Assembly: GCA_019634575.1 (NCBI GenBank)
Contig: JAHCAY010000002.1
Span: 294,897-358,896, forward strand
From: Candidatus Didemnitutus sp.
GTDB lineage: Bacteria > Verrucomicrobiota > Verrucomicrobiia > Opitutales > Opitutaceae
Length of the DNA stretch: 64,000 bases
Direction: 5' to 3'
The notes below the pieces were generated by a model. The model worked only from the letters and a program-made list of their open reading frames with translations. It was not told the DNA's origin and searched no databases. This document shows positions 26,161 through 51,409 of the stretch, in pieces; positions within the stretch are counted from its first letter, which is position 1, and every line of letters begins with the position of its first letter. The translations under genes were made by a program, and so were the position numbers.

Positions 26161-26188
26161 CCGGCCAGGCCGGCAGGAGTCTTTGCCC

Positions 26189-26215
26189 TAAAGTTCTCCG
26201 GATTCCCACCGATGG
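26189..26215 (+). promoter_or_regulatory. Sigma28-like promoter
   Basis: TAAAGTTC-N11-ACCGATGG (TAAA-N15), 34 nt before ATG 26250. Confidence 0.6.
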
Positions 26216-26249
26216 GAGGAATCGGTCACCCTTATCTGTCCGAAGGGCC

Positions 26250-27127: not shown

Positions 27128-27244
27128 CAAAGGTAACGTTGCGGTGTGCCCCAGCACGACCGCCAGATCCGGGCTCGTTCCAGGCGGGCAAGAATCAGGA
27201 GCGACGTGTCGGCACGCCCTCGTGCCCGGTCCCACCGTATCCCC

Positions 27245-28798
27245 ATGAAATCGCTCTCCCTCGCCCAACGCATCTCCCTCGGATTTGCCACCGTCATCGC
27301 CATCACACTGGCGCTGGGAGCCATCTCCTTGAATCGCTTTTTCGCCGTATCTTCCGCCGGCGCCTACCTGGCCAACGATCCAGTGCCCGGCACGGTCGCC
27401 ATCCTGAAGATCAACGCGGAGTTCGAAAACCAGCTCGGCCTGCTCCGCGAATACATCTTCACCCCTGATCGCCCCAAAATCGCCGCGGAATACAACACGC
27501 AGATCGAACACGTCAAAAAGGTGCTCGCCGCCTACGACGTCACCATCACCGCCGCGGACGACCGCGCCATGTTCGAGGAGTTGCAGAAGGACTACCGCGA
27601 CTTCTCCACCGCCGCCGCCGAGATCATGGCCATGGTCGACGGCGGACGCGCGCAGGAGACGCTCAAGATCATGGACGACGGCATCGAGCCGATCTTCGCG
27701 CGGCTGGAAGGTCAGCTGAACAAGCTCATCGCCTTCAACGAATCGAATCTCGGAAACGGCGTCCAAAGCATCACCGAGGCCGCTTGGAGCGGGAAGAAAC
27801 TCCTCGTCGGCGGACTCATCCTCGCGATTGTCGCCGCCGTCGGCATCGCGTGGTTCATCACTCGCTCCACCAACCGCGCGCTCCACTCCATCGCCTCGCG
27901 CCTCGCCGCCGGCGCCGAACAAACCGCCGCCGCCGCCGGCCAGGTCTCCAGCTCCTCCCAATCCCTCGCCGAAGGCGCCAGCGAGCAAGCCGCCTCCCTC
28001 GAAGAAACCTCCGCGTCGCTCGAGGAGATGTCCTCGATGACCAAGCGCAACGCCGATAACGCCAGCCAGGCCAAGGACCTCTCCGCGCAAACCCGCACCG
28101 CCGCCGACACCGGCGCCGCGGACATGACCGAGATGAAATCGGCGATGGACGCCATCAAGCTCTCCTCCGGCGAAATCGCCAAGATCGTGAAGACGATCGA
28201 CGAGATCGCCTTCCAGACGAACATCCTCGCGCTCAACGCCGCGGTCGAAGCCGCCCGCGCCGGCGAGGCCGGAGCCGGCTTCGCCGTCGTCGCCGAGGAA
28301 GTGCGCGCCCTCGCCCAACGCTCCGCCACCGCCGCCAAGGAGAGCGCAGGCAAGATCGAAGACTCCGTCAACAAGAGCGAACACGGCGTCCGCATCTCCG
28401 GCAAAGTCGCCGACTCGCTCGGACAAATCGTCGACCGCGCACGCCGCGTCGACTCCCTCGTCGGCGAGATCGCCACCGCCTCCTCCGAGCAAAGCCAAGG
28501 CATCGTGCAGGTGAACCACGCCGTGTCGCAGATGGACAAGGTCACGCAAAGCAACGCCTCCGCCGCCGAGGAATCCGCCGCCGCCGCCGAGGAACTCAAT
28601 GCACAATCCGCCGAGGTCCAGCACCTCGTCCACGAACTGCTCCAGCTCATCGGCGGCCCGGCTCGCACCGACGGAAAATCGCCGACGCCAAACGCCATCA
28701 GCACGCGCCCCGTCGCCGCCGCTCGCCGCGCCCCGTCGCCGGTGAAGCCCGTCCGCCACGCCGCGCCGGCGCACGCCGAGGCGTTCGTCGACGCCTGA
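27245..28798 (+). CDS. Methyl-accepting chemotaxis protein (periplasmic four-helix-bundle-type sensor)
   Basis: Two TM helices; [43 protein letters not shown] signalling hairpin. Confidence 0.95.
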
Positions 28799-31319: not shown

Positions 31320-32972
31320 ATGAAACTCGGAACCAAGATCGTTCTCGCGAGCATCATCGCCATTCTCCTCACCGTCGGTAGCGCGCTGCTCGTCCAGCGC
31401 AACATCATCCAAAAACAGGGCGTCGCGCTGACGCTCGACACCATGCGGGCCGCCGTCGTCGAAGCCGAGAACGTCCGCGAAAGCATCTCCAAACTCGGCG
31501 AAGGCGGCGCCTTCGATCGCCCCAAACTCCTCGCCGAATACAAAGCCACGGGCGACCTCCGTGGCTCCACCCTCTATCGCACCATCCCGGTGGTCGCCGC
31601 GTGGGAAGCCATCGCCAAGGCCGCCAACCAGGCTGGCTACGAATTCCGCGTGCCGAAGAACGGCGCGCGCAACCCGAAGAACAACCCGACGCCGGCCGAG
31701 GCCGAGATCCTCCGCCAGCTCGAGAGCGGCACGCTGAACGAATTCGTCCGCGTCGACCGCGCCGCCAACGAGATCGTCTACGCCCGCCCGATCAAACTCA
31801 CGCAAGACTGCCTCACCTGCCACGGCGATCCCGCCAAGAGCGCCAGTGGCGACGGCAAGGACTTCCTCGGCTTCCGCATGGAAAATTGGAAAGCCGGCGA
31901 AGTGCACGGTGCCTTCGTGCTCAAAACCGATTTCACCCACGTCGACGAAGTCGTCCGCGCCGGCATGCTCCACAGCCTCGCCTGGGTGCTGCCGATCACC
32001 GCCCTCATGGGCCTCGGCTTCTACATCCTCAATCGCCGCCTCGTCGTGGCGCCACTCACCGCCTCGATCACCAGCATCCGCGACGCGTCCACCCAGACCA
32101 ACGCCGCCGCCCACCAGATCTCCGGCGCCAGCACCGGCCTCGCTGAAGGCGCCAGCGTCCAGGCCGCCTCCCTCGAGGAAACCTCCGCGTCACTCGAAGA
32201 AATGTCCTCGATGACCAAGCGCAACGCCGACCACGCCAGCGCCGCCCGCGCTACCGCCGGCACTGCCCGGCACGCCGCCGACGCCGGACACGAACGCATG
32301 CAGCAGATGCAGGGCGCCATGCACTCCATCGAACACGCCACTCAGGACATCACCAAGATCCTGAAGACGATCGACGAAATCGCCTTCCAGACGAACATCC
32401 TCGCACTCAACGCCGCCGTCGAAGCCGCCCGCGCCGGCGAAGCGGGCGCCGGTTTCGCCGTCGTCGCCGAGGAAGTCCGCGCCCTCGCCCAGCGCTGCGC
32501 CACCGCTGCCAAGGAAACCGCCGCGAAAATCGACGACTGCGTGCAAAAGAGCCAGCACGGCGTGCAAATCAGCACCGACGTCGCCGGCAGCTTCGATGAA
32601 ATCCAGAAGCAGGTGCGCGAGCTCGAAACCCTGATTACCGAGATCGCCAACGCCTCAGGCGAACAAGACACCGGCATTCACCAACTGAACCAAGCGGTGT
32701 CCGACATGGACCGCGTCACCCAAGGCAACGCCGCCCACGCCGAAGAGACCGCCGCCGCCGCCGCCGAGCTCGATTCTCAGACTCAGGCCCTCGATCGGGC
32801 CATTGCGGACCTCCGCCGCATCATCGGCGGCGACCTCGCGGCCCCCACCCTCACGTCCGCCGCCCCGCTCTCAAGCGCCCTCAAGCCAGCCGCAAAAGCC
32901 GCCCACGCTTCACGGCCGGCCGTCCCCGCTCCGCGCGCCAAGGCTCCGGCACCCGAGGGACACTTCGTCTAA
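31320..32972 (+). CDS. Methyl-accepting chemotaxis protein with c-type heme (Tll0287/DUF3365-like) sensor domain
   Basis: [31 protein letters not shown] (CxxCH), GEVHGAF; MCP hairpin [21 protein letters not shown]. Confidence 0.93.
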
Positions 32973-33258: not shown

Positions 33259-33457
33259 GTTCCGGCCCGAGCGCCGCTTCCCGTCTCGTCACACCGTCGC
33301 TCGCCCGCGGCTACCCGCGAGACCCTGCCCGACACTGACGGCTTGCCACGCCGCCGTGCGGGCCCTCTGTAGATTGCGCGACGTCCACGCGCGCCCATCC
33401 GGCGCTCGCCGCGGCCGTCGTTCGATCCCTGTCCTCCGTTTTCCGTCCTCCGAAAAA

Positions 33458-35308
33458 ATGGCGTCCAACTACACCGAAGCCAGCATCAAGACCCTCAGCT
33501 CCCTCGAGCACATCCGCCTCCGCCCCGGCATGTATATCGGCCGGCTCGGCAACGGCACGCACGCCGAGGACGGCATCTACGTCCTGCTCAAGGAAACGAT
33601 CGATAACTCGATCGACGAGTTCACCATGGGCGCCGGCCGGAAGATCGAAGTCGAGATCGACGAGGAGCGCCGCCACATCCGCGTGCGCGACTACGGCCGC
33701 GGCATCCCGCTCGGCAAACTCGTGGACTGCGTCTCCATCATCAACACCGGCGCGAAATACGATTCCGAGACTTTCCAAAAAGCCGTCGGCCTCAACGGCG
33801 TCGGCCAGAAGGCCGTCAACGCCCTCGCGCTCAGCTACCGCGCCCAGGCCTTCCGCGACGGCGAGACCAAGGTCGTCGAATTCGAGAAGGGCAAACTCAA
33901 GTCGCAGTCCAAGGTCACGAAGTCCGACGAGCGCAACGGCACGCTGATCGAGTTCACGCCCGACGCGCAGCTCTTCGGCGCCGACTTCCGCTTCCGCCTC
34001 GAGTTCATCGAGGACATGCTCTGGAACTACGCCTTCCTCAACCGCGGCCTCACGCTCACGCTGAACGGCAAACCGTTCCGCTCGGAGAACGGCCTGAAGG
34101 ATCTGCTCACCAAGGAACTCTCCGGCGAGCCGCTCTACCCGATCATCCACCTCGAAGGCGAAGACATCGAAGTCGCCTTCACGCACGGCAACCACTACGG
34201 CGAAGAGTATTGGTCCTTCGTCAACGGCCAGCACACCACGATGGGCGGCACGCACCTCGCCGCCTTCCGCGAGGCGCTCGTCGAGACCCTCCGCAATCAC
34301 TTCAAGAAGGACTTCGACGCCGCCGACATCCGCCAGTCGATCGACGCCGCCGTCGCCGTCCGCGTGCAGGAACCCGTCTTCGAATCGCAGACGAAAACCA
34401 AACTCGGTTCGACCGACATGGGCCCGAAAGGCCCGACCCTGAAGGAATTCGTCGGCAAGTTCATGCAGCAGTCGCTCGACGTCTACCTGCACAAGAACCG
34501 CGAGGTCGCCGAAACCATCAAGCGCAAGATCGAGGAGAACGAGCACGAGCGCAAAGAACTCGCCGGCATTCGCAACATCGCCCGCGAACGCGCCAAGAAG
34601 GCCTCGCTCCACAACCGCAAGCTCCGCGACTGCCGCCTCCACCTCGGCGACCGCAACGAGCGCGCCGAGCAGAGCACGCTCTTCATCGTCGAAGGCGACT
34701 CCGCCGCCGGCTCGCTCACCTCCTGCCGCGACGTGCAGACGCAGGCCGTGTTCGCCCTGAAGGGCAAACCGCTCAACACCTACGGCCTCTCGAAGAAAGT
34801 CATCTACGAGAACGAGGAGTTTCACCTCCTGCAGTCCGCGCTGAACATCGAGGAAGGCATGGACGGCCTGCGCTACAACCGCATCGTCATCGCCACCGAC
34901 GCCGACGTCGACGGCATGCACATCCGCCTGCTGCTGATCTCGTTTTTCCTCCAGTTCTTCCCCGACCTCATCCGCAACGGCCACCTCTTCATCCTCGAGA
35001 CGCCGCTCTTCCGCGTCCGCAACAAGCGCAAGACGATCTACTGCTACGACGAGCGCGAGAAGCAGTCCGCCATCGCCGAACTCGGCGCCAGCCACGAGAT
35101 CACGCGCTTCAAAGGCCTCGGCGAAATCTCCTCGGGCGAGTTCAAGGACTTCATCGGCGAGAACATCCGCCTCGAACCGGTGAACCTGAACCACCTCTAC
35201 AGCTCCGAGGAACTCCTCGCCTTCTTCATGGGCAAGAACACGCCCGAGCGGCAGGACTTTATCATCGACAACCTCCGCGTGGAAAAGGACCTCGTCGAGA
35301 CGGCCTGA
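33458..35308 (+). CDS. parE: DNA topoisomerase IV subunit B (GyrB/ParE family)
   Basis: [47 protein letters not shown] region, [20 protein letters not shown]; short C-terminus. Confidence 0.92.
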
Positions 35309-36774: not shown

Positions 36775-36996
36775 TCAGCGATTGTTGCGGATGCTGGTGG
36801 TCGTGGTGATCCGATCGCGGTCGCCGGGTTCGATGTTCTCGTCCTCGATGTATTCGCTCTTGGCCTGCGCGATGAGGCTCCGGTTGAGGCTGTCGTTCGG
36901 AAACGGATATTCGTATTTGCGCGCGGTGTAGTAGCCGCCGGCAGCGGTCGTGCAGCTGCAGCGAATGACGAGATGGCGTCCACCGTGTTTGGCCAT
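36775..36996 (-). CDS. Small hypothetical protein (73 aa), last gene of the DUF2589 operon
   Basis: Co-oriented, host-like codons, 54 nt after the upstream stop. Confidence 0.7.
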   Translation of the reverse strand: MAKHGGRHLVIRCSCTTAAGGYYTARKYEYPFPNDSLNRSLIAQAKSEYIEDENIEPGDRDRITTTTSIRNNR

Positions 36997-37050
36997 GGCT
37001 GGAGGGGGTCGAGGGTTGAGGACGAAAAGAAGGGTGTGGTCGCAGCGAGT

Positions 37051-37638
37051 CTACGCCGCGCCGGGAGAGACCTCCGCGCCCTCGTCGATCCGGCTCAGGA
37101 CGCGATCGAGCAGGTAGCAGCGGTCGGTTTGCGAAAGCGAAGCGCTCATGTAGATGGCGAGCGGGCGCGTCGCGGAGAATTGCCGGAGGAGTTCCCAAAT
37201 GCGCAGCAGCGACGCCTGATGCTCGGTGGTGCGCGGCGGCATGCCGTTCTGGACCACAAAGGCCGTCAGACCTTCGCACAATTTCTCCTCGAAGAATTTC
37301 AACCGCTCCTCGGCGGCGGTCACGCGCTGCCGCAACACTTCCTCCGCCCGCGTCAACGCCTCGGCGGCCGCCGCCTGCTGCGCCCGGCGCATGGCCGCGC
37401 GGGAGGGGTGCCCGTCCTCGGCCGGCAGCGCATCCGCCGCGCGCAGGATGCGTCCGCGCAGCGCCGACATCTCCGCGCCTTCCGGCAGGCGGAGCGTGCC
37501 CATCGCCTTCTCCGCCTCGTCGAGCCACTTCAACGCCTCACTCGGGAACGTCGGCTCGCCACGCTGATATTTGTCCATCAGCGGACGCAGCGTGGCGAGA
37601 CGCTCGCCCAGTTTTTCCTGCTGCACGCAGAGGATCAT
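37051..37638 (-). CDS. Helical hypothetical protein (195 aa)
   Basis: Starts 4 nt after the upstream stop; host-like codons; no recognised motif. Confidence 0.8.
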   Translation of the reverse strand: MILCVQQEKLGERLATLRPLMDKYQRGEPTFPSEALKWLDEAEKAMGTLRLPEGAEMSALRGRILRAADALPAEDGHPSRAAMRRAQQAAAAEALTRAEEVLRQRVTAAEERLKFFEEKLCEGLTAFVVQNGMPPRTTEHQASLLRIWELLRQFSATRPLAIYMSASLSQTDRCYLLDRVLSRIDEGAEVSPGAA

Positions 37639-37642
37639 GGCG

Positions 37643-38560
37643 TCACTCGGGTCCGAGCGTCGTCGTCTCCTTGCCGTCCTGCGACCCGGTCATCCATTCG
37701 AGTCCTTCTTCGTGCAGGAGGAGATTGAGCCGGGTGACGGCATCGGGTCCACCGCCGGTGTTCTTGATGTCGTCGGTGTTGACCGACACCTCGAAATCCG
37801 GGGCGACGGTCGGCTTGAGCACGGCGGCCTGCTGGGCGGCGAGACGGAGGTTGTCGATCAGCTTCTTCACCAGTTCGTGATTCAACACCTCGTCGGCAAA
37901 CTTCCGCGCGCGCCCTTCGTCGAAGTCGTCTCCGGCTTTCTCATTCGGGGCCAGTCGTCCGCGCTCCTGATCCAAGCGGTCATGCAGGTAGCGCAGGCAA
38001 ACCTCCTCGATCAATCCGCGCACCACCCGCTCCGTGGTGGCGGCCACGGCGTCGCGGATCGCCGCGTCGGCCGGCGCGCCGCCCGCCTCGGACAGGGAAA
38101 GGCCGTTGAGCGTCTGCTGGATCTCGCCGTCGAGCGATTCGCGCAGCAGCGCCGGCGCGTTGGCCGACATCACGGACGGGATCAGGCGCTCGAACCGGCC
38201 CTGCCATTTCCGCTCCTCGGGTGAGAGGTTTTTCAGCTGCCGCTGGTCCCGCAGCGATTCGCTCGCCCAACTGAGCGCTTGCTGAAAGGCGTCGCCGGCG
38301 ATCCGCGCGATTTCCTTCGGTGTGTTCGCCACGGCGGCGTTGCCAGGAATCGTGGAGGTGAGAATCACCGGCAGGCTGATGCTGACGTTGCGGATGCGCA
38401 GGCGCGGCACGGAGAGGCCCTTCAGCAGCTCGTGTTGCCGGTAGCGGTGGGCGATGCGCAGGGCCTCGGCGTCGGCCACGCTGCGGGCGTGCGCGATGCT
38501 GGCCACGAGTCCACCGATGACTTCGGAGAGTTTGGTGGCGGGGGGGATTTTTTCGGCCAT
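37643..38560 (-). CDS. Hypothetical protein with DUF2589-like N-terminus (305 aa)
   Basis: LSEVIGGLVASIAHARSVAD...LLKGLSVPRLRIRNVSISL echoes the LIGGPL.A...AQ / VP...I pattern of the neighbouring genes. Confidence 0.75.
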   Translation of the reverse strand: MAEKIPPATKLSEVIGGLVASIAHARSVADAEALRIAHRYRQHELLKGLSVPRLRIRNVSISLPVILTSTIPGNAAVANTPKEIARIAGDAFQQALSWASESLRDQRQLKNLSPEERKWQGRFERLIPSVMSANAPALLRESLDGEIQQTLNGLSLSEAGGAPADAAIRDAVAATTERVVRGLIEEVCLRYLHDRLDQERGRLAPNEKAGDDFDEGRARKFADEVLNHELVKKLIDNLRLAAQQAAVLKPTVAPDFEVSVNTDDIKNTGGGPDAVTRLNLLLHEEGLEWMTGSQDGKETTTLGPE

Positions 38561-38688
38561 GGGAAATGCGGGATGAACATCGTCCGCGGCGCCCGGCGCG
38601 GCTCAGCGGCGTCCGGCAACGTCGCGCCCGCCACCGTGACCAGTGGCGGGCGGAGCGCTCGCGGGAAACGCAGACTCTCGTCTCGGCG

Positions 38689-39543
38689 TCACGTCGTGTA
38701 GCGCACCTCGACGGTGGTGCCGACGAGCGAGTCGGGCACCTCCTTGTCGAGCGTGACGCTGAGCCGGCGCGTGGCGTTCTGCGTGTCGGGCGTGAGCGTG
38801 GCACCGGACGGGATGCTGGCCGTCACTTCGGCCTTGGGCGTCTGCGTCGAGGCCGGATCGGGCCACTTCGCGAGGGGCAGCGCGGTCGCGCCGGCCTTGG
38901 CGATCGCGTTCTTCAGGTCCTGCACGTCCTCCATCTCGAGCGTGACGATGGCTTTGTTCTGGGCGTCCTTGCTCACGATCGTGATCGGCACGACCAAGCT
39001 GCCTTTCGACTCGCGCAGCGACTGCTCGAGAATCGTGAGGAGGCGCTCGGTGCCGGCGGGGATGTCCTGGTTTTTCGCGCGCACGAGGATCTTCATGTCG
39101 AAGGTCCGTTCCTCCTTGTCGGAGCGGCTGGTGTTCTTGGCGGTGGACGCCTTGCCGGAGACGCTGACCGACGCGAACCAGAACTTCGCGCTGGCGCTGA
39201 AGGAGCCGGAGGTGGCGGTATTCTCCTCGCTCTTGCTCTCGGTGGTGGAGGTGATCTTCGCGTTGAACTCCACGAGGGCGTCACTGACGGTGAGGTAAGG
39301 CACGGGCACCATCGCGAGGAAGGGCACGGTGAGGCTGAAGCGGCGCGTGCCGCCGTCGTCGTCGCGGCGCGTATAGGCGAACTCGGCGTTCACCACCTTG
39401 CCGTTGCGATCGCAGCCGACCTCCTTGATGAAGTTGGTCGTGGCGATGGCCGACTTGGCCTGCGCGCGGATGATGGCGTCGAGGGGGCCACCGATGAGGT
39501 TCGCAAAATCGAGACTGGCGATCTCGTTACCGGAAACGGGCAT
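38689..39543 (-). CDS. DUF2589 family protein with C-terminal extension (284 aa)
   Basis: SLDFANLIGGPLDAIIRAQAKSA..T.NFIKEVG; LTVPFLAMVPVPYL; FDMKILVRA..QDIPAGTERLL.IL. Confidence 0.85.
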   Translation of the reverse strand: MPVSGNEIASLDFANLIGGPLDAIIRAQAKSAIATTNFIKEVGCDRNGKVVNAEFAYTRRDDDGGTRRFSLTVPFLAMVPVPYLTVSDALVEFNAKITSTTESKSEENTATSGSFSASAKFWFASVSVSGKASTAKNTSRSDKEERTFDMKILVRAKNQDIPAGTERLLTILEQSLRESKGSLVVPITIVSKDAQNKAIVTLEMEDVQDLKNAIAKAGATALPLAKWPDPASTQTPKAEVTASIPSGATLTPDTQNATRRLSVTLDKEVPDSLVGTTVEVRYTT

Positions 39544-39582
39544 GGCTGGATCTCCTGTAACTCAGGTTGAAGGGGGGCCGGT

Positions 39583-40353
39583 TCACTCCGGCAGGGCAAT
39601 TTCGATGGTCTGGCCGGTGAGGGCGGCCGGGGCTTGGGGCGCGACGGTGAAGTCGCCGCCGGCCTGTGTCGGGGGCGTCAGCTTGTATTGCGCGCCGCTG
39701 TAGCTGAAGCCGTAGTTCGCCTTGATCTTCTCGAGGTCGCTGGCGGGCGCATCGAGCTTCAACGTGGTGGAGCCGCCGCCGGAGACGACCTTGGCGATGA
39801 CGATCTTCGGGCCTTTCTTTTCGCCGATGGCTTCCTCGAGGATCGTCAGGAGGCGGTCGGTGCCGGCCGGCATGTCCTGATTGCGGGCTTCGACGCGGAT
39901 GTGCATGTCGAACGACCGCTCTTCCTGGTCCGTGTAGGAGGTCTTTTTCTTCGAGGAGGTTTTTCCCGTCACGTTGACGGAGAAGAACCAATACTTCGCG
40001 CTCGCGCTCATCTCGCCCTCGTAGTCCGACGAGGTGTCGAGCTGCGTCTGCGTGGTCGAGGTGATCTTCGCGTTGAAGTCGATCACCGCCTCGTAGATCG
40101 TGATGTAGGGCACGGGCAGCATCGTCAGGAACGGCACCGTGAGGGTGAATTCCTGGTTTTTGCCCGCGTCGTTCTTCTTGTTGTATTTGAAGTCGACGGT
40201 GATGAGGTTCCCGTCCTTGTCGAAGCCGACTTCCTTGATGAAGTTGGCGGTGGTAATGGCCGACTTGGCTTGGGTGCGGACGATCGCATCGAGCGGACCG
40301 CCGATCAGATTCGAGAAATCCAAGCTGGCGATTTCTCTTCCGGAGACAGGCAT
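39583..40353 (-). CDS. DUF2589 family protein with C-terminal extension (256 aa)
   Basis: SLDFSNLIGGPLDAIVRTQAKSA; LTVPFLTMLPVPYI; QDMPAGTDRLLTIL; AAGGAG RBS upstream. Confidence 0.85.
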   Translation of the reverse strand: MPVSGREIASLDFSNLIGGPLDAIVRTQAKSAITTANFIKEVGFDKDGNLITVDFKYNKKNDAGKNQEFTLTVPFLTMLPVPYITIYEAVIDFNAKITSTTQTQLDTSSDYEGEMSASAKYWFFSVNVTGKTSSKKKTSYTDQEERSFDMHIRVEARNQDMPAGTDRLLTILEEAIGEKKGPKIVIAKVVSGGGSTTLKLDAPASDLEKIKANYGFSYSGAQYKLTPPTQAGGDFTVAPQAPAALTGQTIEIALPE

Positions 40354-40430: not shown

Positions 40431-40865
40431 TTAGCCAATGTCCGCGCCTTGTAGATTTGTGTCTTTCGCTTGTAGAAAAATACCCGCGCGCCGCGCGGCC
40501 TCGCGCGGCCCGTCCGCTCCCGTCGCGAAGGGCGAGCGCGTCCGCCGCGGACACAATTGCGCGGGCGTGAGGCCGAGGTGCTTCTTCAACGCGTGGTTGA
40601 GGTGCGCCGCGTCGCGGTAGTGAAACGCGTCCGCCACCTCCTTGGCGGAAAATCCCGCACGCGACGCCGCAGCGGCCTGACGCGCCCGCACGCTGTCGAA
40701 AAAATCCTTGGGCAGACACTTGAATCGTTCGCGGAACAGCCGCCGCAGCTGCTTCGTGTTCATCCGGAGTTTCTGCGCCAGACGGCTCATCGAATACCGC
40801 GCCTCGTGGGCCAGCTCGGTCCAACGCTCGATCTCGTCGGTCGATTCAGAGGGAGAAATGCTCAT
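40431..40865 (-). CDS. Stand-alone AraC-type HTH regulator (no ligand-binding domain)
   Basis: LAQKLRMNTKQLRRLFRERF..LPKDF...VR; KEVADAFHYRDAAHLNHALKKHLGLTP. Confidence 0.88.
   Translation of the reverse strand: MSISPSESTDEIERWTELAHEARYSMSRLAQKLRMNTKQLRRLFRERFKCLPKDFFDSVRARQAAAASRAGFSAKEVADAFHYRDAAHLNHALKKHLGLTPAQLCPRRTRSPFATGADGPREAARRAGIFLQAKDTNLQGADIG
40448..40476 (-). promoter_or_regulatory. 8-bp direct repeat with 21-bp period, candidate AraC operator
   Basis: Minus strand TCTACAAG-N13-TCTACAAG, about 95 nt upstream of the DUF2589 operon. Confidence 0.5.
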
Positions 40866-41084: not shown

Positions 41085-41870
41085 CTACGGCAACAATCCC
41101 TCGAGGCCCGCCGCCGCGAATTTGTTTCGCAACTCCGCCAGCGCTCGCCGGCTCGCGGTGAGCGGCGACACCGGCACATCGAGGTGAAACACCACCTCGT
41201 CGTCGCCGCTGCGCTCGATCTTCTTCACCCGCGCGAGATTCACCAGCACCTGCCGGTGGATGCGCACGAATTGCGCCTCCGGCAAAGTCTCCTCCCACGA
41301 CTTCAGCGTGCGCAGCACCAGCAGCGTCTGCCCGCCCTCGAGCACGAGCTCCGTGTAGTTCTCCGCCGAGCGCACCGCGCAGATCGACGCCACGGGCACG
41401 AACCGCGTCGTGCCGTCGGTCTTCACGAACACGCGATCGTCCATCGTCAGCCGTTGCCCCGTCGCCGCCGGCGCGGCGATCGCCGTCGGCGCCGGCGCCA
41501 CGGCCAGCGTGCGCGCCTCGCCGAGCCGTTGCAGCGTCGCCTTCAAGCGCGCGGTCGTGACCGGCTTCAGCAGGTAATCCAGCGCGTTCACCTCGAACGC
41601 CCGCAGGGCAAACCGATCGTAGGCGGTCACGAAGACGATCTGCGCGTTCGGCTTCACGCTATCGAGCAAGTCGAAGCCGCTGCCGCCGCGCAGCTGGATG
41701 TCGAGGAACACCAGATCGTAGTCGGCGCGCCCGAGCAGCGCGCGCGCGTCGTTGATCGTGCCCGCCTCGCCCACCGCCTCGATCGAGGGATGCGCAGCGA
41801 GCAGACGCCGCAGTTCGAGCCGCGCCAGCGGCTCATCGTCGATCAGCAAAGCCCGCCGCGCCGCGCTCAT
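41085..41870 (-). CDS. LytTR family response regulator
   Basis: LLIDDEPLAR, FLDIQL, FVTAYD.FAL.AFEVNALDYLLKP; FVRIHRQVLVN. Confidence 0.95.
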   Translation of the reverse strand: MSAARRALLIDDEPLARLELRRLLAAHPSIEAVGEAGTINDARALLGRADYDLVFLDIQLRGGSGFDLLDSVKPNAQIVFVTAYDRFALRAFEVNALDYLLKPVTTARLKATLQRLGEARTLAVAPAPTAIAAPAATGQRLTMDDRVFVKTDGTTRFVPVASICAVRSAENYTELVLEGGQTLLVLRTLKSWEETLPEAQFVRIHRQVLVNLARVKKIERSGDDEVVFHLDVPVSPLTASRRALAELRNKFAAAGLEGLLP

Positions 41871-41980: not shown

Positions 41981-44900
41981 TCACACCGGCGGATTCGAGC
42001 CGGCGCGCGGCCGCAACGGCAGCCGCAACCGCACGCGCACCCAGCCTTCCTCGGTCACGATATGTGGACGGCACGCGGGCCCGTAGTAACGCGAGAGTCG
42101 CCGGCGCAGGTTCTCGAGCCCGATGTGCGTCGAATCGCCGTTCAGCTCGGCGGGCGCGGTGAATTTCTCGCCCACCCACGCGCCGGTGTTCGCGATTTCG
42201 CAGACGAGAATCTCGCCTTCGACCTTCAGCGTGACCGCCACCTCGAGGACGCTCGGACTCGTGCGGCCGCCGTATTTGATCGCGTTCTCGATCAACGGCA
42301 AAAACAGGAACTGCGGCACCGGCACCGCGCGCGCTTCGGGGGCCACGTAGACACTCGTGCGCAATCCCTCCTGCCAGCGCGCTCGCTCGATATCGAGGTA
42401 GGCGTGCAGCATTTCCACCTCCTCCGCCACCGTCGTCATGCCGTCGCCGCCGCGCGTCAGCGTCCAGCGACAGAACTCCGAGAGCCGCGTCACCATCTCG
42501 CCCGCCGCCTCCGCGTTCGCGTAGACCAGCGCGCGGATCGAATTGAGCGAGTTGTAGAGGAAATGCGGATTGAGCTGGTAGCGCAGCAACTCCAGCTGCG
42601 CCTTCTCCTCGGCGAGGCGCGCGGCGAGTTTCTCGTCCTGATCGAGCCGGTGCAGCCGCTCGAGCTCCGCGTTCTGGCGCGCCAACTCCGCCGTGCGCTG
42701 CGCGATCACGTCCTCCAGCCGCGTGCGCTCGCGGAGCAGCCGCCGGATGCGCCAGCGGATGTAGACGAACAGCGCCAGCGAACCCGCCACGAGATACGCC
42801 GCCACCGCCCACAACGTCTGCCACCACGGCGCGCGCACCACGAACGGCACCGTCGCCGGCTCGGCCCAGCGGCCATCGCTCGATCGCCCGCGCGCCTCGA
42901 ACACGTAAGCGCCCGGCGGCAGGTTCGCGAACGACCGGTCGCCGCGCGAATCGAGCTCCGGCACGCTGTCGCCGAAGCCCTTCAACCGCGTCTCGTAGAG
43001 CGCGCCGCTTTCGCCCGCAAGGCCGGGCGCGCCGAAGCTGAAGCGCACCGTCGTGCGCCCCGGGCCGATCTCCACCGGTTTCCCGTCCGCCAGCGTCGCG
43101 TGCCGCCCGTCGTTCAGCGCGATTTCGCGCAACAACGTCGCGCCCAGCGCGGCCGGCGCGTTCGCCCGCCACAGTTTCAGATCGATGCGCAACAAGGCCG
43201 ACGGGCCCATCACCCACAACGCATCGCGTCCCTCTTCCTCGTCGAGAAACAGCGCCGAATTGCCGGAAACGCGCTCCATCTCGGGCAACGGCACCTGAAT
43301 CCACACGCCGTCGCGCACGTAGCCGAGCTGCAACGCCTCGCTGGGATTGCGCAGCCCGGCCTTCGCCGCGAGGATCCACACCTCGCCGCGCCGCCCCTCC
43401 ACGAGCGCGCGCACCGCCATCGTGCCGTCGGCGAATTGCCGCCCGAACGCCGGCTCGGGCCGGAAGCCCTTCGTGGCCGCGTCGAAGCGGAAAAGCCCCT
43501 GCGCCGTGACGAACAGCGGCGCGCCGGCCACTTCCTGCACCGAAATTTTTCCGGCCGGCAGTCCGGCATCCCGACCGAAAACCTGCGCCTGCGCCGCCCC
43601 GCCCGGCTCCGCGGGAAACGCAAGATGCCACACGCCCTGGTTGTCGGTGCCGAGCCACACGCTGCCGTCGCGGTCCTCGACGATCGAGCTGCCCCGCGCT
43701 TCCTTCACTTGCCCGGACTCCTTCCACTCGCCGGCGACGCGCCGCCAGCGGAACGTCCCGCGCAGCGAGGCGCTGTAGGCCACGTCCGGCGACGCGTGCG
43801 TGACGGTGACGGCGAACTGATTCGTGACCCCGGAGATTTTTTTCGGCGCGCCTTGCGCGTCGATTTCCCACAAACCGCCGAGCGAGGCCACGAGCAGCGT
43901 GTCTCCCGCCGGCGTCATCTGCCAGATCTTGTCCTGGATCGCCGACCAGCGCTCGAAGCGGGCCGGACCCGGCGCGACGCCCGGCGGTTCCAGCCGGTGC
44001 AATCCATCCGGTCCGCTCATCAACAACCGCCCTCGCCAGCGCGCGAGCGTCGGCGAGGAGTGCCGCCGCACGCCGTTGGCCGGACCGAACCATGTGTAGG
44101 CAGGATGCAGTTGCGCGCGGGCCACGCCCCACTCGGTCCCGATCCACAGTCCATCGTGCTGATCGGGCGTCGCGCTGATCGTGCTGCTCGTTTCCAGACC
44201 GCTGTTCTCATCCAGAAGCGCGACGAAATTCAGTTCGCGGTCGAGCACCACCGCGCCGCCGCCCAGCGTCGTCAGCACATAGCGCCCATCCGGCAGACGC
44301 ACGCCGCCGTAAAGCCGCTTGGCCTTGAAGAACTCGTCGAGCGGATGCGGTTCGAGCGTGAGTTTTTTCCCGTCCCAACGCCCGAGACCGGCCACGACGC
44401 CGTGCTCACCCTCGAGTCCCATCAGCCAGCCGCCGCGCGGATGCGGCACCGCGAAATGCGGGAAATAGTTGCCGAGCCGGTCCGCCGGATCGCCGAGCTC
44501 CTCCCATTTGCCGCCCTCGATCGGTTTGAACCAACCGCGCGTCAGCGCCACCAGCAGGTGATCGCCGAGCCAAAACGACAGCACGATGCTGCGTTCGCCC
44601 GTCGGCCAGAAATCGAATTTCCCCTCGCGCCACCGCAACAGCGCCGTGTTGCCCTGGAACCACACGCCTTGCGGCGTCACATGCACCTGCCAGAGCGTGC
44701 CGAGGTCGCCGGCCTCCTTCGGCACGAGCGCACGCAACGACGTGAACACGCGCCGGCCGTCGGGCCCGCGGTCGATGCGCCCCAGCTCGTTCACGCCCGC
44801 GACCCACACCGTCCCCTGCGCGTCGACGCCCACGCCGCGCACATGCGCGCTGTTCGGCACCGCGATCTGCCGCCACGTCTGGCCGTCGTATTCGAGCACG

Positions 44901-45121
44901 CTGTCGAAGTTGCCGAACAGCATCGTCCCGTCCGGTGCACACACGCCGCCCCACACCTGATTCAACCCGCCGTTCACGCGCGGCGGGAAATTCCGCACCA
45001 GCGGCACGCCGGTTTCGCCGGCTGGCGCCGCGCGCCCCGCCACCGCCCCCGCAGCCATGAATGCGAGCAGAAAGGCGAGAGCGTGGGAGGGGCGCACGGC
45101 GTCAGAAAAACGAAACGACAT
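41981..45121 (-). CDS. LytS-type sensor histidine kinase with periplasmic beta-propeller and Y_Y_Y domain
   Basis: Signal peptide; repeated GxxWxG blades; FANLPPGAYVFEARGR (Y_Y_Y); TM; LRYQLNPHFLYNSLNSI; LPLIENAIKYG; HIGLENLRRRL. Confidence 0.92.
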   Translation of the reverse strand: MSFRFSDAVRPSHALAFLLAFMAAGAVAGRAAPAGETGVPLVRNFPPRVNGGLNQVWGGVCAPDGTMLFGNFDSVLEYDGQTWRQIAVPNSAHVRGVGVDAQGTVWVAGVNELGRIDRGPDGRRVFTSLRALVPKEAGDLGTLWQVHVTPQGVWFQGNTALLRWREGKFDFWPTGERSIVLSFWLGDHLLVALTRGWFKPIEGGKWEELGDPADRLGNYFPHFAVPHPRGGWLMGLEGEHGVVAGLGRWDGKKLTLEPHPLDEFFKAKRLYGGVRLPDGRYVLTTLGGGAVVLDRELNFVALLDENSGLETSSTISATPDQHDGLWIGTEWGVARAQLHPAYTWFGPANGVRRHSSPTLARWRGRLLMSGPDGLHRLEPPGVAPGPARFERWSAIQDKIWQMTPAGDTLLVASLGGLWEIDAQGAPKKISGVTNQFAVTVTHASPDVAYSASLRGTFRWRRVAGEWKESGQVKEARGSSIVEDRDGSVWLGTDNQGVWHLAFPAEPGGAAQAQVFGRDAGLPAGKISVQEVAGAPLFVTAQGLFRFDAATKGFRPEPAFGRQFADGTMAVRALVEGRRGEVWILAAKAGLRNPSEALQLGYVRDGVWIQVPLPEMERVSGNSALFLDEEEGRDALWVMGPSALLRIDLKLWRANAPAALGATLLREIALNDGRHATLADGKPVEIGPGRTTVRFSFGAPGLAGESGALYETRLKGFGDSVPELDSRGDRSFANLPPGAYVFEARGRSSDGRWAEPATVPFVVRAPWWQTLWAVAAYLVAGSLALFVYIRWRIRRLLRERTRLEDVIAQRTAELARQNAELERLHRLDQDEKLAARLAEEKAQLELLRYQLNPHFLYNSLNSIRALVYANAEAAGEMVTRLSEFCRWTLTRGGDGMTTVAEEVEMLHAYLDIERARWQEGLRTSVYVAPEARAVPVPQFLFLPLIENAIKYGGRTSPSVLEVAVTLKVEGEILVCEIANTGAWVGEKFTAPAELNGDSTHIGLENLRRRLSRYYGPACRPHIVTEEGWVRVRLRLPLRPRAGSNPPV

Positions 45122-45174
45122 CGCAGGGCGAGCCGGTTCGCGCCGCCGCCCACGGACGGGACGGCGGCGCGTGC

Positions 45175-46203
45175 TCAGCTGACCGGCATGAGCAAAAATC
45201 CGCGCAGCCCGCCGTCCTTCAAACCGGTGCCCGCGATCCAGCCCGCGGCGTTCACGGCGACCGCTTTTTGGAGGAGCCAGCCCGGCGCGCCGTTCACGAA
45301 ATCCGCCAGCGCGCGCATGCCGTCCGCCGGTGTCCAGCGAAACGCCTCGCGGCGTCCGTTGTCGTCCATGTAGCGCCCGACCACGACGCGCGCGTCGTTG
45401 GCCGCGAGCGCCTCGCTCTGGTGGCTCACGTCCGAGTTCAAGTCGTAGGTGCGCCCGCCTTCGTGCAGGAACGCGTGGATGTTGCCCTGCGGCGTCATCA
45501 GGCGCCCGCACACGCGCCCGCCCGGCGTCAGCGCCGTGCCCCAGAGGCCGCCGCCGGTCTCGGGCTTGATCAGCGTCACCGCGTCGCCCCACCACAGCGC
45601 GATCTGCGACTGTGTTTCGAAGAGCCCGCACGCGCAATTCGCCAGCACCGTGCCCGAATCGTTCAACGCCATCGCGACCGCGTTGCCGCCGGTCTGCACC
45701 GGCATGAAGCGCGGCTCGCCGCCGTCGTGCAGGAACACGCGCCGGCGCACGCGGCCGTTTGAGACGAAAGTCACATGGCCGGCCACTTCGCCGACGTTGT
45801 TCACGCCGGCCGCGCAACTCTCGGCCTCGGGCCAGAATTCCGCGCCGAAGCCGTTGCGATGCGCCGCCCACGCGTGCAACGGACCCGCGCCCGCGCGCCG
45901 CTGGCCCGCGAGCAGGCCGTTGCCGCTCAGGCTCGTCAGCGGCACGCCGCCGGCGACGCTCGCGCGCTCGATCAGCGCACCGTTGTCGCGCACGAAGCCG
46001 CGCACCGCATCGGGCTTCACGACGCGCTCCGTGGGATGCCCGTAGAGCGCGACTTGCCCGGCGTCGTTCAACGCCACCGGCAACAGCGGCACGCCGGGCG
46101 CGAGCTCGCCGAGATCCTCGAGCCGATACGCGGCTGCATGCTCGGCGGGCCGTTCCCGCGGGGACGTCGAGGTGAAGGGCGGATGGGAGGTGACCGATGG
46201 CAT
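45175..46203 (-). CDS. HAF-repeat beta-propeller protein
   Basis: Repeats LNDAGQVA, VNNVGEVAG, LNDSGTVL, HAFLHEGG..YDLN, VNAAGWIAG; no clear signal peptide. Confidence 0.8.
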   Translation of the reverse strand: MPSVTSHPPFTSTSPRERPAEHAAAYRLEDLGELAPGVPLLPVALNDAGQVALYGHPTERVVKPDAVRGFVRDNGALIERASVAGGVPLTSLSGNGLLAGQRRAGAGPLHAWAAHRNGFGAEFWPEAESCAAGVNNVGEVAGHVTFVSNGRVRRRVFLHDGGEPRFMPVQTGGNAVAMALNDSGTVLANCACGLFETQSQIALWWGDAVTLIKPETGGGLWGTALTPGGRVCGRLMTPQGNIHAFLHEGGRTYDLNSDVSHQSEALAANDARVVVGRYMDDNGRREAFRWTPADGMRALADFVNGAPGWLLQKAVAVNAAGWIAGTGLKDGGLRGFLLMPVS

Positions 46204-46386: not shown

Positions 46387-47508
46387 ATGAAAGTCGAACA
46401 GCTGCTTTTTGCCCCCACTCAGGAATGGCGCGCTCACCACGGTTCGCTCGCGGGGCTCGCGCCGCAGTTCGTCCTCGTGTTCGGCGAACGCGCCTTGCTC
46501 ACCGCGGCGAATCTCGCCGGGCTGCGCGCGCGCTTCCCGACGGCGCGCCTCGTCTGCTGCTCCACCGCCGGCGAAATTCTCGGCACCGAGGTGCTCGTCG
46601 GCACGCTCACCGCCACCGCCGTCGCCTTCGAACGCAGCGAAGTCCGCTGCCTCTCCACCACCATCGCGCAACCCGCCGACAGCCGCGCGTGCGGCGCCCA
46701 CCTCGGCCGCGAACTCGCCCGCCCGGACCTCGCCCACGTCTTCGTGCTTTGCGACGGCGCGATCACCAACGGCAGCGAATTCGTCGCCGGCCTCGTCGCG
46801 CATCTGCCCTCCGCCGTCAAAGTCACCGGCGGCCTCGCCGGCGACGGCGACCGATTCGAGAAAACGCTCGTCGGCCTCGACGAGCTTCCGACCGACGGCC
46901 GCATCGTCGCCCTCGGCTTCTACGGCACGCGGCTGCGCATGCACTACGGCTGCGAAGGCGGCTGGTCACCCTTCGGCCCCGAGCGCATCGTGACGCGCTC
47001 GGCCGGCAACCAGCTCTTCGAGCTCGACGGCCACTCCGCGCTCGACCTCTACAAGCGTTACCTCGGCGACCTGGCGCGCGGCTTGCCGGGCACCGCGCTC
47101 CGCTTCCCGCTCAGCGTCCATCCGATCGGCGCGGCCGCACCGGTCGTGCGCACCATCCTCTCGATCGACGAGACCGCGCCCAGCATGACGTTCGCCGGCG
47201 ACATTCCCCTTGGCGCGCGCGTCCGCTTCATGCGCGCCTCCTACGAGGATCTCATCGACGGTGCCGCCCGCGCCGCCACCGCGGCGCGCGGCGATGGCCC
47301 CGAACTCGTGCTCTGCGTCAGTTGCATCGGCCGCCGCATCGTCCTCGGCCAGCGCACCGAGGAGGAAACCGAACTCGTCCGCGAGGCCGTCGGCGCCGGC
47401 TCCGTCATCACCGGTTTCTACTCCTATGGCGAACTCGCCCCGCAGGGCGACGGCGCGTGCCAGCTCCACAACCAGACGATGACCATCACCTCGCTGTCCG
47501 AAGCATGA
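46387..47508 (+). CDS. FIST-domain (NosP-like) signalling protein
   Basis: CSTAGEI, VTGGLAGD, CEGGWSPFG, LFELDG..AL..Y, SCIGRR, GFYSYGE, LHNQTMTI. Confidence 0.92.
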   Translation: MKVEQLLFAPTQEWRAHHGSLAGLAPQFVLVFGERALLTAANLAGLRARFPTARLVCCSTAGEILGTEVLVGTLTATAVAFERSEVRCLSTTIAQPADSRACGAHLGRELARPDLAHVFVLCDGAITNGSEFVAGLVAHLPSAVKVTGGLAGDGDRFEKTLVGLDELPTDGRIVALGFYGTRLRMHYGCEGGWSPFGPERIVTRSAGNQLFELDGHSALDLYKRYLGDLARGLPGTALRFPLSVHPIGAAAPVVRTILSIDETAPSMTFAGDIPLGARVRFMRASYEDLIDGAARAATAARGDGPELVLCVSCIGRRIVLGQRTEEETELVREAVGAGSVITGFYSYGELAPQGDGACQLHNQTMTITSLSEA

Positions 47509-49028
47509 CGCCCACCCATCGCCTCCTCGCCCGCCAGCTGCGCAAGCATTTCGGCGACACTCCGCCGGACGACCCGCGGATGGAGGCGTTCCTGCGCGCC
47601 ATCGAAAGCACCTACGAACAATCCGACGCCGACCGCCATCTGCTCGACCACGCGATGAAGCTCAGTTCCGACGAACTCGGCGCCGCGCTCGAATCCCTCC
47701 GCCAGCAAAACGCCTGCGAGCACGACATCATCGTCAAGCTGCGCGCCGCCATCCACGCCCTCGGCGACCAGGATCTCCCGCGCGACACCGCCACCGACGA
47801 CCCGCTCGAACTCGCCGCGGTGATGCAGCAGCTCGTCGCCGAGCGCAACGCCAACAAGGCCGCGCTCGAAGCCGCCAAGGAAGCCGCCGAATCCTCCAGC
47901 CGCGCCAAGAGCGAGTTCCTCGCCGTGATGAGCCACGAGATACGCACGCCCCTCAACGCCGTCATCGGCTTCGCCTCCCTCATGGCCGACGCGCCCGACG
48001 CCGACCACCGCGAACCCATCGACATCATCCGCCGCAGTGGCGAGCACCTGCTCGCGCTCATCAACGACATCCTCGACTTCTCCAAGATCGAAGCCGGCCA
48101 TCTCGAACTCGCGTCCGCGCCGTTCGATCTCCCGCAGCTCTGCCGCGATGCGCTCGACTTCGTGCGCCCGCCGGCCGCGGCCAAGCACCTCACGCTCGTC
48201 TCCGATGGCATCGAGCTGCTGCCCGCCCGCATCGTCAGCGACGCCGGGCGGCTCCGCCAGATCCTCACCAACCTCCTCAGCAACGCCGTCAAATTCACCC
48301 CCGCCGGCCGCGTCACGCTCCGCGTCGCCGCCACGCCGCGGGACGCCGGCTGGCTGCTCCGTTGCGAGGTCATCGACACCGGCATCGGCATCGGCGCCGA
48401 GCATTTGCCGCGCTTGTTCCGCGCCTTTTCCCAAGTCGACTCCTCCAACGTCCGCCAACACGGCGGCACCGGCCTCGGCCTCGCCATCAGTCGCCGCCTC
48501 GCCGAGCTCATGGGCGGCTCCCTCGAGGTGGAGAGCACGCTCGGCGCCGGTTCGCGCTTCACGCTCGCCCTGCCCGTCGGACGCGTGACGGAAACGGCGC
48601 CCGCCGTGCCCATCCCCGCCACAACCGCCGCCGCCGGCGTGCTGCGCATCCTCGTCGTCGAGGACAACGAGAACAACCGCCGGCTCATGCGCCTCGGCCT
48701 CGAAGCCTCCGGCTACGCGCCGCATTTCGCCGTCGACGGCCGCGCCGCCCTCGTCGCCCTGGCCCGGCCCGACGACTTCGATGTCGTTTTCATGGACCTG
48801 CAAATGCCCGACGTCGACGGCTTCGGCGTCGTGGCCGAGTTGCGCAAGACCGTCCCGCTGTCTCGGCCGCCGTATCTGATCGCGCTCACCGCCAGCGTGC
48901 GCCCCGAAGACCGCGACCGCGTGCTCGCCGCCGGCATGCACGAATTCATCGCCAAGCCCGCGCCCATCGCCGAAATCCGCGCCGCCCTCGTCCGCGCCCG
49001 CGACTGGCTCGCCGCGCGCGCTCGGTAG
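47505..49028 (+). CDS. Cytoplasmic hybrid histidine kinase/response regulator
   Basis: ATGA overlap with the FIST gene; HRLLARQLRK N-terminus; MSHEIRTPLN; [10 protein letters not shown]; GGTGLGL; FMDLQMPDVDG; AKP. Confidence 0.93.
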   Translation: MTPTHRLLARQLRKHFGDTPPDDPRMEAFLRAIESTYEQSDADRHLLDHAMKLSSDELGAALESLRQQNACEHDIIVKLRAAIHALGDQDLPRDTATDDPLELAAVMQQLVAERNANKAALEAAKEAAESSSRAKSEFLAVMSHEIRTPLNAVIGFASLMADAPDADHREPIDIIRRSGEHLLALINDILDFSKIEAGHLELASAPFDLPQLCRDALDFVRPPAAAKHLTLVSDGIELLPARIVSDAGRLRQILTNLLSNAVKFTPAGRVTLRVAATPRDAGWLLRCEVIDTGIGIGAEHLPRLFRAFSQVDSSNVRQHGGTGLGLAISRRLAELMGGSLEVESTLGAGSRFTLALPVGRVTETAPAVPIPATTAAAGVLRILVVEDNENNRRLMRLGLEASGYAPHFAVDGRAALVALARPDDFDVVFMDLQMPDVDGFGVVAELRKTVPLSRPPYLIALTASVRPEDRDRVLAAGMHEFIAKPAPIAEIRAALVRARDWLAARAR

Positions 49029-51392: not shown

Positions 51393-51409
51393 ATCGAACG
51401 GAGAGCAAC

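Follow-up and report, generated by a model that had tools for sequence, protein, structure and literature searches.

DUF2589 proteins and two partner families form a conserved three-gene module that may build an oligomeric beta-barrel

Beta-barrel pore-forming proteins, such as those of the alpha-haemolysin/leukocidin and aerolysin families, anthrax protective antigen, and the gasdermins, carry one long hairpin per subunit. Their stem hairpins are characterized by an amphipathic tip of membrane length, aromatic girdles, and a polar collar. Here, we describe a gene cassette built around DUF2589 proteins in a 64,000-nucleotide (nt) stretch of DNA from Candidatus Didemnitutus sp. (contig JAHCAY010000002.1, positions 294,897 to 358,896; hereafter the window). 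The core of this cassette is a module of three protein families, which we call D (the DUF2589 proteins), P3, and P4. D likewise has one long hairpin per subunit, and it resembles the pore-formers in an alternating tip of approximately 10 residues per strand that is bordered by aromatic residues on either side, a richness in Ser, Thr, and Gly, and a polar stalk; the variable Ig-like domain of some D proteins could be the counterpart of a binding module. However, D matches no pore-former in sequence or fold, has no signal peptide or known export route, and, unlike the known pore-formers, has an alpha/beta core, a 26-residue N-terminal helix, a probable hairpin-less paralogue, and a helical partner. 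From the sequence features described below, we tentatively propose, with somewhat less than even confidence, that an oligomeric beta-barrel, most likely a pore in a membrane, is assembled from D as its abundant subunit, and that P3 together with P4 would control or complete this process.

Two further groups of described systems invite comparison. Phage tail tubes, Hcp, and lambda gpFII are also built from small subunits whose hairpins form a barrel, a likeness that is taken up with the hairpin of D. The tripartite alpha-helical toxins (Hbl, Nhe, and AhlABC) are likewise encoded by a three-gene set that includes paralogues, as D and P3 probably are to each other, and P3 resembles them in joining a small beta element to its helical bundle. 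On the other hand, neither Foldseek nor HMM comparison finds similarity between these toxins and the module proteins, D is not helical, and secretion signals are absent. Concerning DUF2589 itself, the Pfam entry PF11655 states no function, and our literature searches found DUF2589 mentioned twice in passing, in transcriptome tables, and PF11655 not at all, in line with an initial annotation of this locus, made from the letters alone, which had called the family functionally unassigned. The partnership with P3 and P4, the intergenic hairpin, and the long beta-hairpin of DUF2589 are new with respect to the literature found. Because no homology ties the module to a known kind of system, we rate it as new in kind, its function being proposed from sequence statistics alone.

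A three-family module across bacteria and archaea

The cassette lies on the minus strand and comprises five open reading frames (ORFs): D1 (256 amino acids (aa), 39583 to 40353), D2 (284 aa, 38689 to 39543), P3 (305 aa, 37643 to 38560), P4 (195 aa, predicted to be helical from its sequence and alignment, 37051 to 37638), and P5 (73 aa, 36775 to 36996). The intervening gaps measure 39, 128, 4, and 54 nt, and an AraC-type gene lies upstream, all as the initial annotation had described. Its assignment of D1 and D2 to DUF2589 is borne out by matches to PF11655 (E = 3e-27 and 96.2 bits for D1; E = 3e-24 and 86.6 bits for D2; gathering score 23 bits), which cover the model end to end in both proteins; matches to the same model were obtained for all 55 relatives in the alignment. 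D1 and D2 are 59% identical across their first 191 residues, and their C-terminal domains are unrelated. P3, P4, and P5 have no match in Pfam, NCBIfam, PHROGs, or PADLOC, and P4 belongs to a family of approximately 190-aa proteins (77 homologues), all of which are annotated as hypothetical and none of which has a Pfam domain. As no 19-residue window in any of the proteins exceeds the Kyte-Doolittle mean of 1.6 used as cut-off for a transmembrane (TM) segment (highest value 1.56), none has a TM helix or a signal-peptide-like N-terminus; the earlier statement that signal peptides are lacking is therefore upheld.

One genome per species was scanned for relatives of D, and the 70 loci so obtained, all from other genomes, were compared by tblastn with the window proteins and by all-against-all clustering of every ORF. 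D is present in 68 of these loci, P3 in 63, and P4 in 60, and in almost all of them D is followed by P3 and then P4 on one strand. P5 and the AraC-type gene have no counterpart among the 70 loci, and only about six carry two D genes. Because D, P3, and P4 alone are conserved together across loci, the conserved unit is a self-contained module of three families, of which the window carries an embellished copy with D duplicated and P5 appended. The expectation that uncharacterized families would prove to be co-conserved in a neighbourhood analysis was thus confirmed. The five-gene unit that had been proposed consists of real ORFs; however, it overstates the unit, since only three families are co-conserved, and the statement that DUF2589 usually occurs in paralogue clusters is not supported.

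Two close relatives (88-96% aa identity) retain the whole order AraC, D1, D2, P3, P4, P5; the duplicate of D, P5, and the AraC-type gene are peculiar to this lineage. D1 is 94% identical at the aa level in the relatives, with synonymous changes well above non-synonymous ones, and synonymous changes clearly exceed non-synonymous changes in D1, D2, P3, and P4 alike. P5 is intact in both relatives, with equal length and frame and approximately 87% nt identity, and its synonymous to non-synonymous codon changes number 12:11, 17:9, and 11:10. P5 is probably a real gene that stands outside the conserved module. In one relative, synteny stops directly past P5. In relative L073 (4353 to 7132), two proteins with T6SS_HCP domains stand directly past the 73-aa ORF, where the window has an S41 peptidase; one of them, 741 aa long, consists of an Hcp joined to Big_9/cadherin-like repeats, and synteny breaks exactly where the cassette ends.

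The bacterial carriers of the module span approximately ten phyla (Desulfobacterota, Myxococcota, Alpha- and Gammaproteobacteria, Verrucomicrobiota, Bacteroidota, Planctomycetota, Chloroflexota, Gemmatimonadota, KSB1, and Actinomycetota), the archaeal carriers are Methanothrix and Methanoperedens, and cultured carriers include Nonlabens, Flavobacterium micromati, Ferrimonas pelagia, and Chondromyces crocatus. D proteins of the window are 50-58% identical to those of Methanothrix and Methanoperedens, an identity across bacterium and archaea from which horizontal transfer under strong constraint is argued, and we propose that the module is horizontally mobile. In one locus, the cassette adjoins a DDE transposase. 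When grouped at 50% identity, the D superfamily amounts to 2,341 clusters (E up to 0.001) in a set of 1.84 billion representatives. Searches of phage and plasmid sequences returned one unannotated 4-kb contig labelled 'Bacteriophage sp.', six plasmids, and no IMG/VR match, and a phage origin of the module was rejected. The module is near-absent from phage genomes and rare on plasmids.

The genes around the module are unrelated from locus to locus: the 124 genes closest to the module in 60 loci fall into 105 Pfam families, none of which occurs in more than three genes. Statements below about listed flanking families refer to the 25 most frequent of these 105. A chance juxtaposition, or a set of ordinary unlinked proteins without joint function, might explain why a stem-loop that could split transcription units separates D from P3. 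This explanation has a negligible likelihood, given that order, strand, and spacing are kept in approximately 60 loci of unrelated lineages with no other common neighbour and that all genes are under purifying selection in close relatives. Hardly more credible is a system associated with, or resembling, the ribbons known as R-bodies, which the initial annotation had tentatively named as co-occurring with DUF2589. D1, D2, P3, P4, and P5 all lack a Reb-type Pfam domain, none is among the listed flanking families of the 124 neighbours, and D is an alpha/beta protein of 180-340 aa, as opposed to Reb proteins, which are small and helical; the supposed co-occurrence with Reb loci was thus not borne out.

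Several variants of the module were noted. Two tandem P4 paralogues occur in some loci (L026, 10366 to 11541; L029, 6119 to 7278), and another (L028, 2159 to 5201) has two P3-P4 pairs, so that the minor components, like D, can be duplicated. Vibrio carries tandem D genes of another D subfamily. A variant of another subfamily occurs on plasmid pFA8 of Fulvitalea axinellae (L071, 5974 to 8448): a DUF2589 protein of 320 aa comes first, a P3-like hypothetical protein of 239 aa takes the place of P3, a second DUF2589 protein of 189 aa follows, and P4 is missing. Immediately upstream of this variant are genes for a HisKA_3 kinase and a LuxR-type regulator, and a gene for a HipA toxin is found in the vicinity.

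The long hairpin of D

D1 consists of a conserved alpha/beta core with a long hairpin (residues 1-180) and a variable, beta-rich C-terminal domain (residues approximately 181-256), and D lengths in the family range from 180 to 340 aa. The N-terminus is strictly conserved as M-P-V-S-G-x-E. An AlphaFold2 (AF2) monomer model of D, built from 55 sequences, is poor (predicted local distance difference test, pLDDT, 63). It contains a helix at residues 18-43 (26 residues), a hairpin at 52-60/66-74, a C-terminal helix at 163-175, and a confident small beta domain at 184-253, with residues 85-156 unmodelled or of low confidence. The C-terminal domain is Ig-like in some members (InlK_D3, Big_1) and lambda gpFII-like (Phage_attach) in others; the Phage_attach match is above threshold in protein P0007 and spans only 45 residues of the variable domain. 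Since the variable C-terminal barrel is the only confident part of the model, Foldseek returned only generic small barrels for D. For P3, Foldseek searches of the PDB and BFVD gave only generic helical bundles, and no pore-former was matched by either protein. Searches of PDB sequences with single sequences and profiles of D, P3, and P4 likewise gave no real match, and Pfam, PDB sequence searches, and Foldseek revealed no relation to a known family of beta-barrel pore-forming toxins. By model or profile, the module proteins match neither a metabolic enzyme nor a solved structure; a match to ordinary metabolic enzymes had been named at the outset as one of the results that would speak against a novel system.

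Covariation fills in the region that the model leaves blank. Mean-field direct coupling analysis (DCA) was applied to 257 non-identical D core sequences (effective number, Neff, 156) gathered from two protein searches and the loci. The top couplings form one antiparallel ladder (i + j of approximately 243) that runs from 81/159 to 117/124: the band along it comprises 1.8% of all pairs and contains 26 of the 180 top-ranked ones (hypergeometric p of approximately 2e-16). As an internal control, the AF2-predicted hairpin 52-60/66-74 was recovered too. The proximal strands pack on both helices (16-150, 17-154, 24-156, 75-165, and 78-168). Given this ladder and the helix-packing couplings, D is best described as an alpha/beta core with one projecting hairpin of approximately 75 residues, which corresponds to residues 85-159 of D1 (39877 to 40101, minus strand) and, in the same alignment columns, to residues 85-159 of D2 (39067 to 39291, minus strand).

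Family-averaged hydropathy divides the hairpin into three zones: (i) a proximal zone (84-97/146-159), which is amphipathic and lies within the core; (ii) a stalk (98-108/135-145), in which both faces are polar; and (iii) a distal tip (109-118/125-134), which is amphipathic through strict alternation over approximately 10 residues per strand. In the tip, the cross-strand pairs 111/132, 113/130, 115/128, and 117/126 are hydrophobic, with polar pairs in between. The tip is bounded on either side by aromatic residues (109/134 and 121-123), and the turn (119-124), which reads AKYWFF in D1, is rich in Gly, Trp, and Phe across the family. Ser and Thr make up 31% of residues 98-143, compared with 12% elsewhere in D. 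Covariation and hydropathy together thus give D an amphipathic hairpin of membrane length, as is expected of beta-barrel pore-formers, and these data suggest that it resembles their stem hairpin. In Bacteroidota and others (L048, L050-L070), the first hairpin of D carries an insert of approximately 100 residues between positions corresponding to D1 residues 60 and 67.

Two other candidate functions for D were considered. A DNA-binding arm similar to that of HU/IHF was rejected, as the arm is acidic, Ser/Thr-rich, and amphipathic and has no DNA-binding Pfam match; an enzyme of the Pro1 tautomerase type was dropped, as D would have only its conserved N-terminal Met-Pro in common with that fold.

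A hairpin of this kind need not meet a membrane. D could instead be a soluble cytoplasmic homopolymer (stacked rings, a tube, or a shell), likened to phage tail tubes or Hcp, in which the hairpins form an internal barrel or are buried between subunits and P3 and P4 act as minor initiator, terminator, or chaperone. This is the main alternative to a pore, and we consider it unlikely. It would account for the strictly conserved extreme termini (M-P-V-S-G-x-E in D and ..PE in P3), which are typical of subunit interfaces, for the absence of secretion signals, for the signals that make D the major and P3 and P4 the minor products (see below), and for weak couplings that tie hydrophobic positions of the hairpin to the core. 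Similarity to tube proteins is also hinted at by matches to Phage_tube_2 (16 bits; gathering score 27) and Phage_tube (17.6 bits; gathering score 22.4) and by the Phage_attach domain of P0007. However, both tube-family matches are below their gathering scores, the Phage_attach match is confined to the variable domain, and Foldseek found no tube or Hcp. The inferred order of elements in D (long N-terminal helix, hairpin, long hairpin, helix) differs from the topology of tail tubes. Furthermore, no sheath, baseplate, or other particle gene is among the listed flanking families, and the module is near-absent from phage genomes.

Expression signals, partner proteins, and regulators

A GC-rich stem-loop (CCGCCCGCCAC..GGTGGCGGGCG, 38618 to 38659, minus strand) lies between D2 and P3. 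It has a folding energy of -32.7 kcal/mol (z -4.6), which was equalled by 0 of 200 dinucleotide shuffles, and the same fold test found no comparable structure in the D1-D2, P4-P5, or post-P5 spacers of the window. In the two relatives, the stem is invariant, the loop is variable, and the flanks diverge. Across loci, the D-P3 spacer has a median of approximately 88 nt and the P3-P4 spacer one of approximately 6 nt. Loci whose D-P3 spacer measures 50 nt or more number 44; against mononucleotide shuffles, their spacers gave a mean z of -3.1, and 32 of them had values below -2. The fold is a long perfect hairpin directly 3' of the D stop codon, followed by a T-run in several low-GC genomes. A strong Shine-Dalgarno signal was found for D1 (AAGGAG, 7 nt upstream) and a further one for D2 (AGGAG); none was found for P3, P4, or P5.

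We propose that the stem-loop is an attenuator or an mRNA-stabilizing hairpin that sets D well above P3 and P4. From its position after D and the restriction of Shine-Dalgarno sites to D1 and D2, we infer that D would be a major subunit made in excess, with P3 and P4 as minor components. The P4 start codon lies 4 nt past the P3 stop codon, a spacing that points to translational coupling of P4 with P3. Runs of related organisms that were guessed to be RNA contain short contigs that fall almost wholly on D1 and D2; a single partial match of 37 nt lies in P4, and one 211-nt contig, from a run likewise only guessed to be RNA, bridges the D1-D2 junction; as a sign of expression, this coverage is weak. 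None of the sequencing runs checked for co-transcription contains this genome.

The stem-loop also figures in a further reading, in which D would be an amphipathic coat of a hydrophobic cytoplasmic inclusion (a gas space, lipid, sulfur, or a polymer granule), following the logic of GvpA or the phasins, with P3 and P4 as assembly factors. A major-subunit gene followed by a stem-loop is also the arrangement of gvpA-type genes, the sheet of D has one hydrophobic and one polar face, and many carriers, including Methanothrix and Flavobacteriia, come from aquatic or sediment habitats. That habitat pattern may, however, reflect metagenome sampling alone. Gas_vesicle matches are absent from the window proteins, from 55 D relatives, and from the listed flanking families, no phasin or other inclusion-protein Pfam match was found, and accessory gvp-like or granule genes are missing from the same listed families. 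A set of three genes is also far below the size of known gas-vesicle sets, and we regard such a coat as highly unlikely.

P3 has an N-terminal helix, an LPVPRLRI motif with a strand, a helical bundle of approximately 170 residues, a C-terminal beta region, and an invariant ..PE end. Its AF2 model (pLDDT 81.5) shows the same succession of helix, one long strand, bundle, and C-terminal beta region. In the P3 family (28 homologues, on contigs that also bear D homologues), the bundle region is variable, and both ends are highly conserved up to the last residue. D and P3 have in common an 'L..(L/V)IGG...A...A' helix, a '(M/G)LPVP(Y/R)hxI' motif with a strand, and an 'F(D/E)hxhxh' strand, and when the two are aligned on this pattern the helical bundle of P3 occupies the place of the distal hairpin of D. 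Pfam and BLASTP found no match between P3 and DUF2589. Comparison of the two profiles by hhalign gave E-values of 0.22 and, with diverse alignments, 0.0033 (both untrimmed), and of 2.9e-5 with a probability of 74% after manual removal of inserts. P3 is a probable distant paralogue of DUF2589 in which the helical bundle would have replaced the hairpin; the earlier label 'DUF2589-like' is plausible in this respect, and its statistics are weak.

Upstream of D1, on the minus strand, are genes for a stand-alone AraC-type helix-turn-helix (HTH) protein (144 aa, 40431 to 40865), a LytTR-family response regulator (Response_reg and LytTR domains, 41085 to 41870), which runs in the same direction as the cassette, and a sensor kinase (41981 to 45871) that combines a Reg_prop/Y_Y_Y propeller with a LytS-type His_kinase domain. 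The AraC-type protein belongs to the AraC/XylS HTH class (HTH_18, E = 7e-14; HTH_AraC, 2e-8), whose tandem HTH domain usually comes together with a sensor domain at the N-terminus. It is similar in size to MarA and SoxS and, being too short for one, has no sensor domain. It is approximately 70% identical in the relatives, compared with 88-96% for the cassette, and can be considered a candidate regulator limited to this lineage. A terminator-like GC hairpin with a T-run lies within the 3' end of this ORF (40484 to 40498, minus strand), approximately 130 nt ahead of the start of D1; either the transcript of the regulator may terminate here, or the C-terminal tail of the AraC ORF may be over-called. 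Upstream of D1, no repeats were found that would hint at binding sites for LytTR or AraC proteins.

The kinase (approximately 1,296 aa, start codon uncertain; PF06580, E = 2e-22) and the LytTR regulator have the domains of a LytS/LytTR two-component system. The LytTR regulator is kept in relative L074, and LytTR regulators lie near the cassette in nine other loci from several phyla. In approximately 20 loci, again from several phyla and with the window among them, two-component genes of either the LytS-type/LytTR or the HisKA_3/LuxR-type combination lie within a few kb of the module, which is suggestive of a two-component system as its recurrent regulatory neighbour. The initial annotation was thus correct in placing an AraC gene upstream; however, the gene is confined to this lineage, and the neighbour that recurs is a two-component system. 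In several Flavobacteriia, genes for a multi-TM protein, a short kinase, and a response regulator directly precede or follow the cassette, sometimes together with a lipoprotein-like gene (cluster 15).

For this arrangement the LytSR-cid/lrg holin-antiholin system offers a regulatory analogy only. There, too, a LytS-type kinase and a LytTR regulator stand beside a small module, and here the module possibly acts on membrane integrity; a paralogue could antagonize the active component in either case. The Cid and Lrg proteins are small helical membrane proteins, in contrast to D, P3, and P4, which have no TM helices, and the two-component system accompanies the module in only approximately one third of loci.

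The proposed assembly and the genomic surroundings

In the assembly that we tentatively favor, D would be the main product, made in the cytoplasm as an alpha/beta protein with its projecting hairpin. D would oligomerize into a ring, the hairpins would join as a beta-barrel, and this barrel would, in its most likely form, insert into a membrane as a pore. P3 and the coupled, helical P4, present in smaller amounts, might nucleate, cap, or hold back the assembly of D, and a local chain of LytS-type kinase, LytTR regulator, and small AraC-type activator may act upstream. A hetero-oligomeric assembly, pore or filament, had already been suggested in the initial annotation, and it is favored by the hairpin of D, the signals for an excess of D, and the hairpin-less P3.

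Several observations weigh against a membrane pore of this kind. The hairpin is equally compatible with lining a soluble tube or with folding back on the helices and core of its own subunit, and a few weak couplings connect residues 109, 113, and 117 of the hairpin with residues 33, 79, and 167 of the core. The presumed lipid-facing residues are only moderately hydrophobic (V/T/A/G in general; Y, G, M, A and V, V, G, T in D1). The structure models of D and P3 are of monomers only, that of D is poor, and no pore-former was retrieved with it. Every module protein lacks a secretion signal and a hydrophobic N-terminus, and no conserved secretion gene is among the listed flanking families. As for the partners, homology between D and P3 reaches significance only with the manually trimmed alignment, and the stem-loop could be a full terminator, with D and P3-P4 on separate transcripts. 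Lastly, two-component genes are absent from the surroundings of most loci.

A broader claim, that DUF2589 proteins are unrecognized, cytoplasmically made beta-barrel pore-formers of bacteria and archaea, gated by P3 and P4 and used for programmed membrane permeabilization (lysis, release, or suicide) under two-component control, appears doubtful at present. If the proposed assembly of D holds, it would provide a function and mechanism for a DUF family of approximately 2,300 clusters at 50% identity and would establish a structurally new class of beta-barrel pore or tube builders in bacteria and in methanogenic and methanotrophic archaea. Two partner families are defined as well, of which at least one (P4) has no Pfam entry, and even without a pore, the succession of D, hairpin, P3, and P4 is a compact three-gene target with cultured hosts and no solved or characterized relative.

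A special case of the pore would be an anti-phage or abortive-infection system, in which P3 and P4 detect an insult and set D free to perforate the membrane of the cell that carries them. The effector-like hairpin of D, the three-component architecture, and the patchy spread of a self-contained module across phyla and domains at high identity, in unrelated contexts and with one DDE transposase as neighbour, would all suit such a system. We nevertheless judge it quite improbable. PADLOC-DB v2 gives no match for D1, D2, P3, P4, or P5, and the module does not lie within defence islands, its flanks being housekeeping or heterogeneous. The presumably toxic D apparently exceeds its presumed controllers, and the frequent neighbours are environmental two-component sensors with no phage-sensing domains.

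In the window, the cassette is part of a block of approximately 14 kb that also contains the S41 peptidase gene, the AraC-HTH gene, the LytTR regulator, the propeller kinase, and a hybrid kinase (46425 to 49028). This block is flanked by genes resembling those for the B subunit (33356 to 35308, plus strand) and the A subunit (49218 to 51392, plus strand) of gyrase/topoisomerase IV, and it may be an insertion that split two genes which adjoin in other genomes. GC content drops to 0.59-0.61 at 50001 to 53000, compared with approximately 0.68 elsewhere in the window; this region, with an ORF that lacks a Pfam match (50471 to 52144), may be foreign DNA. Further away are a receiver-domain protein (24897 to 26915) and two methyl-accepting chemotaxis genes (27146 to 28798 and 31320 to 32972, both on the plus strand), with 4HB_MCP and Tll0287-like sensor domains.

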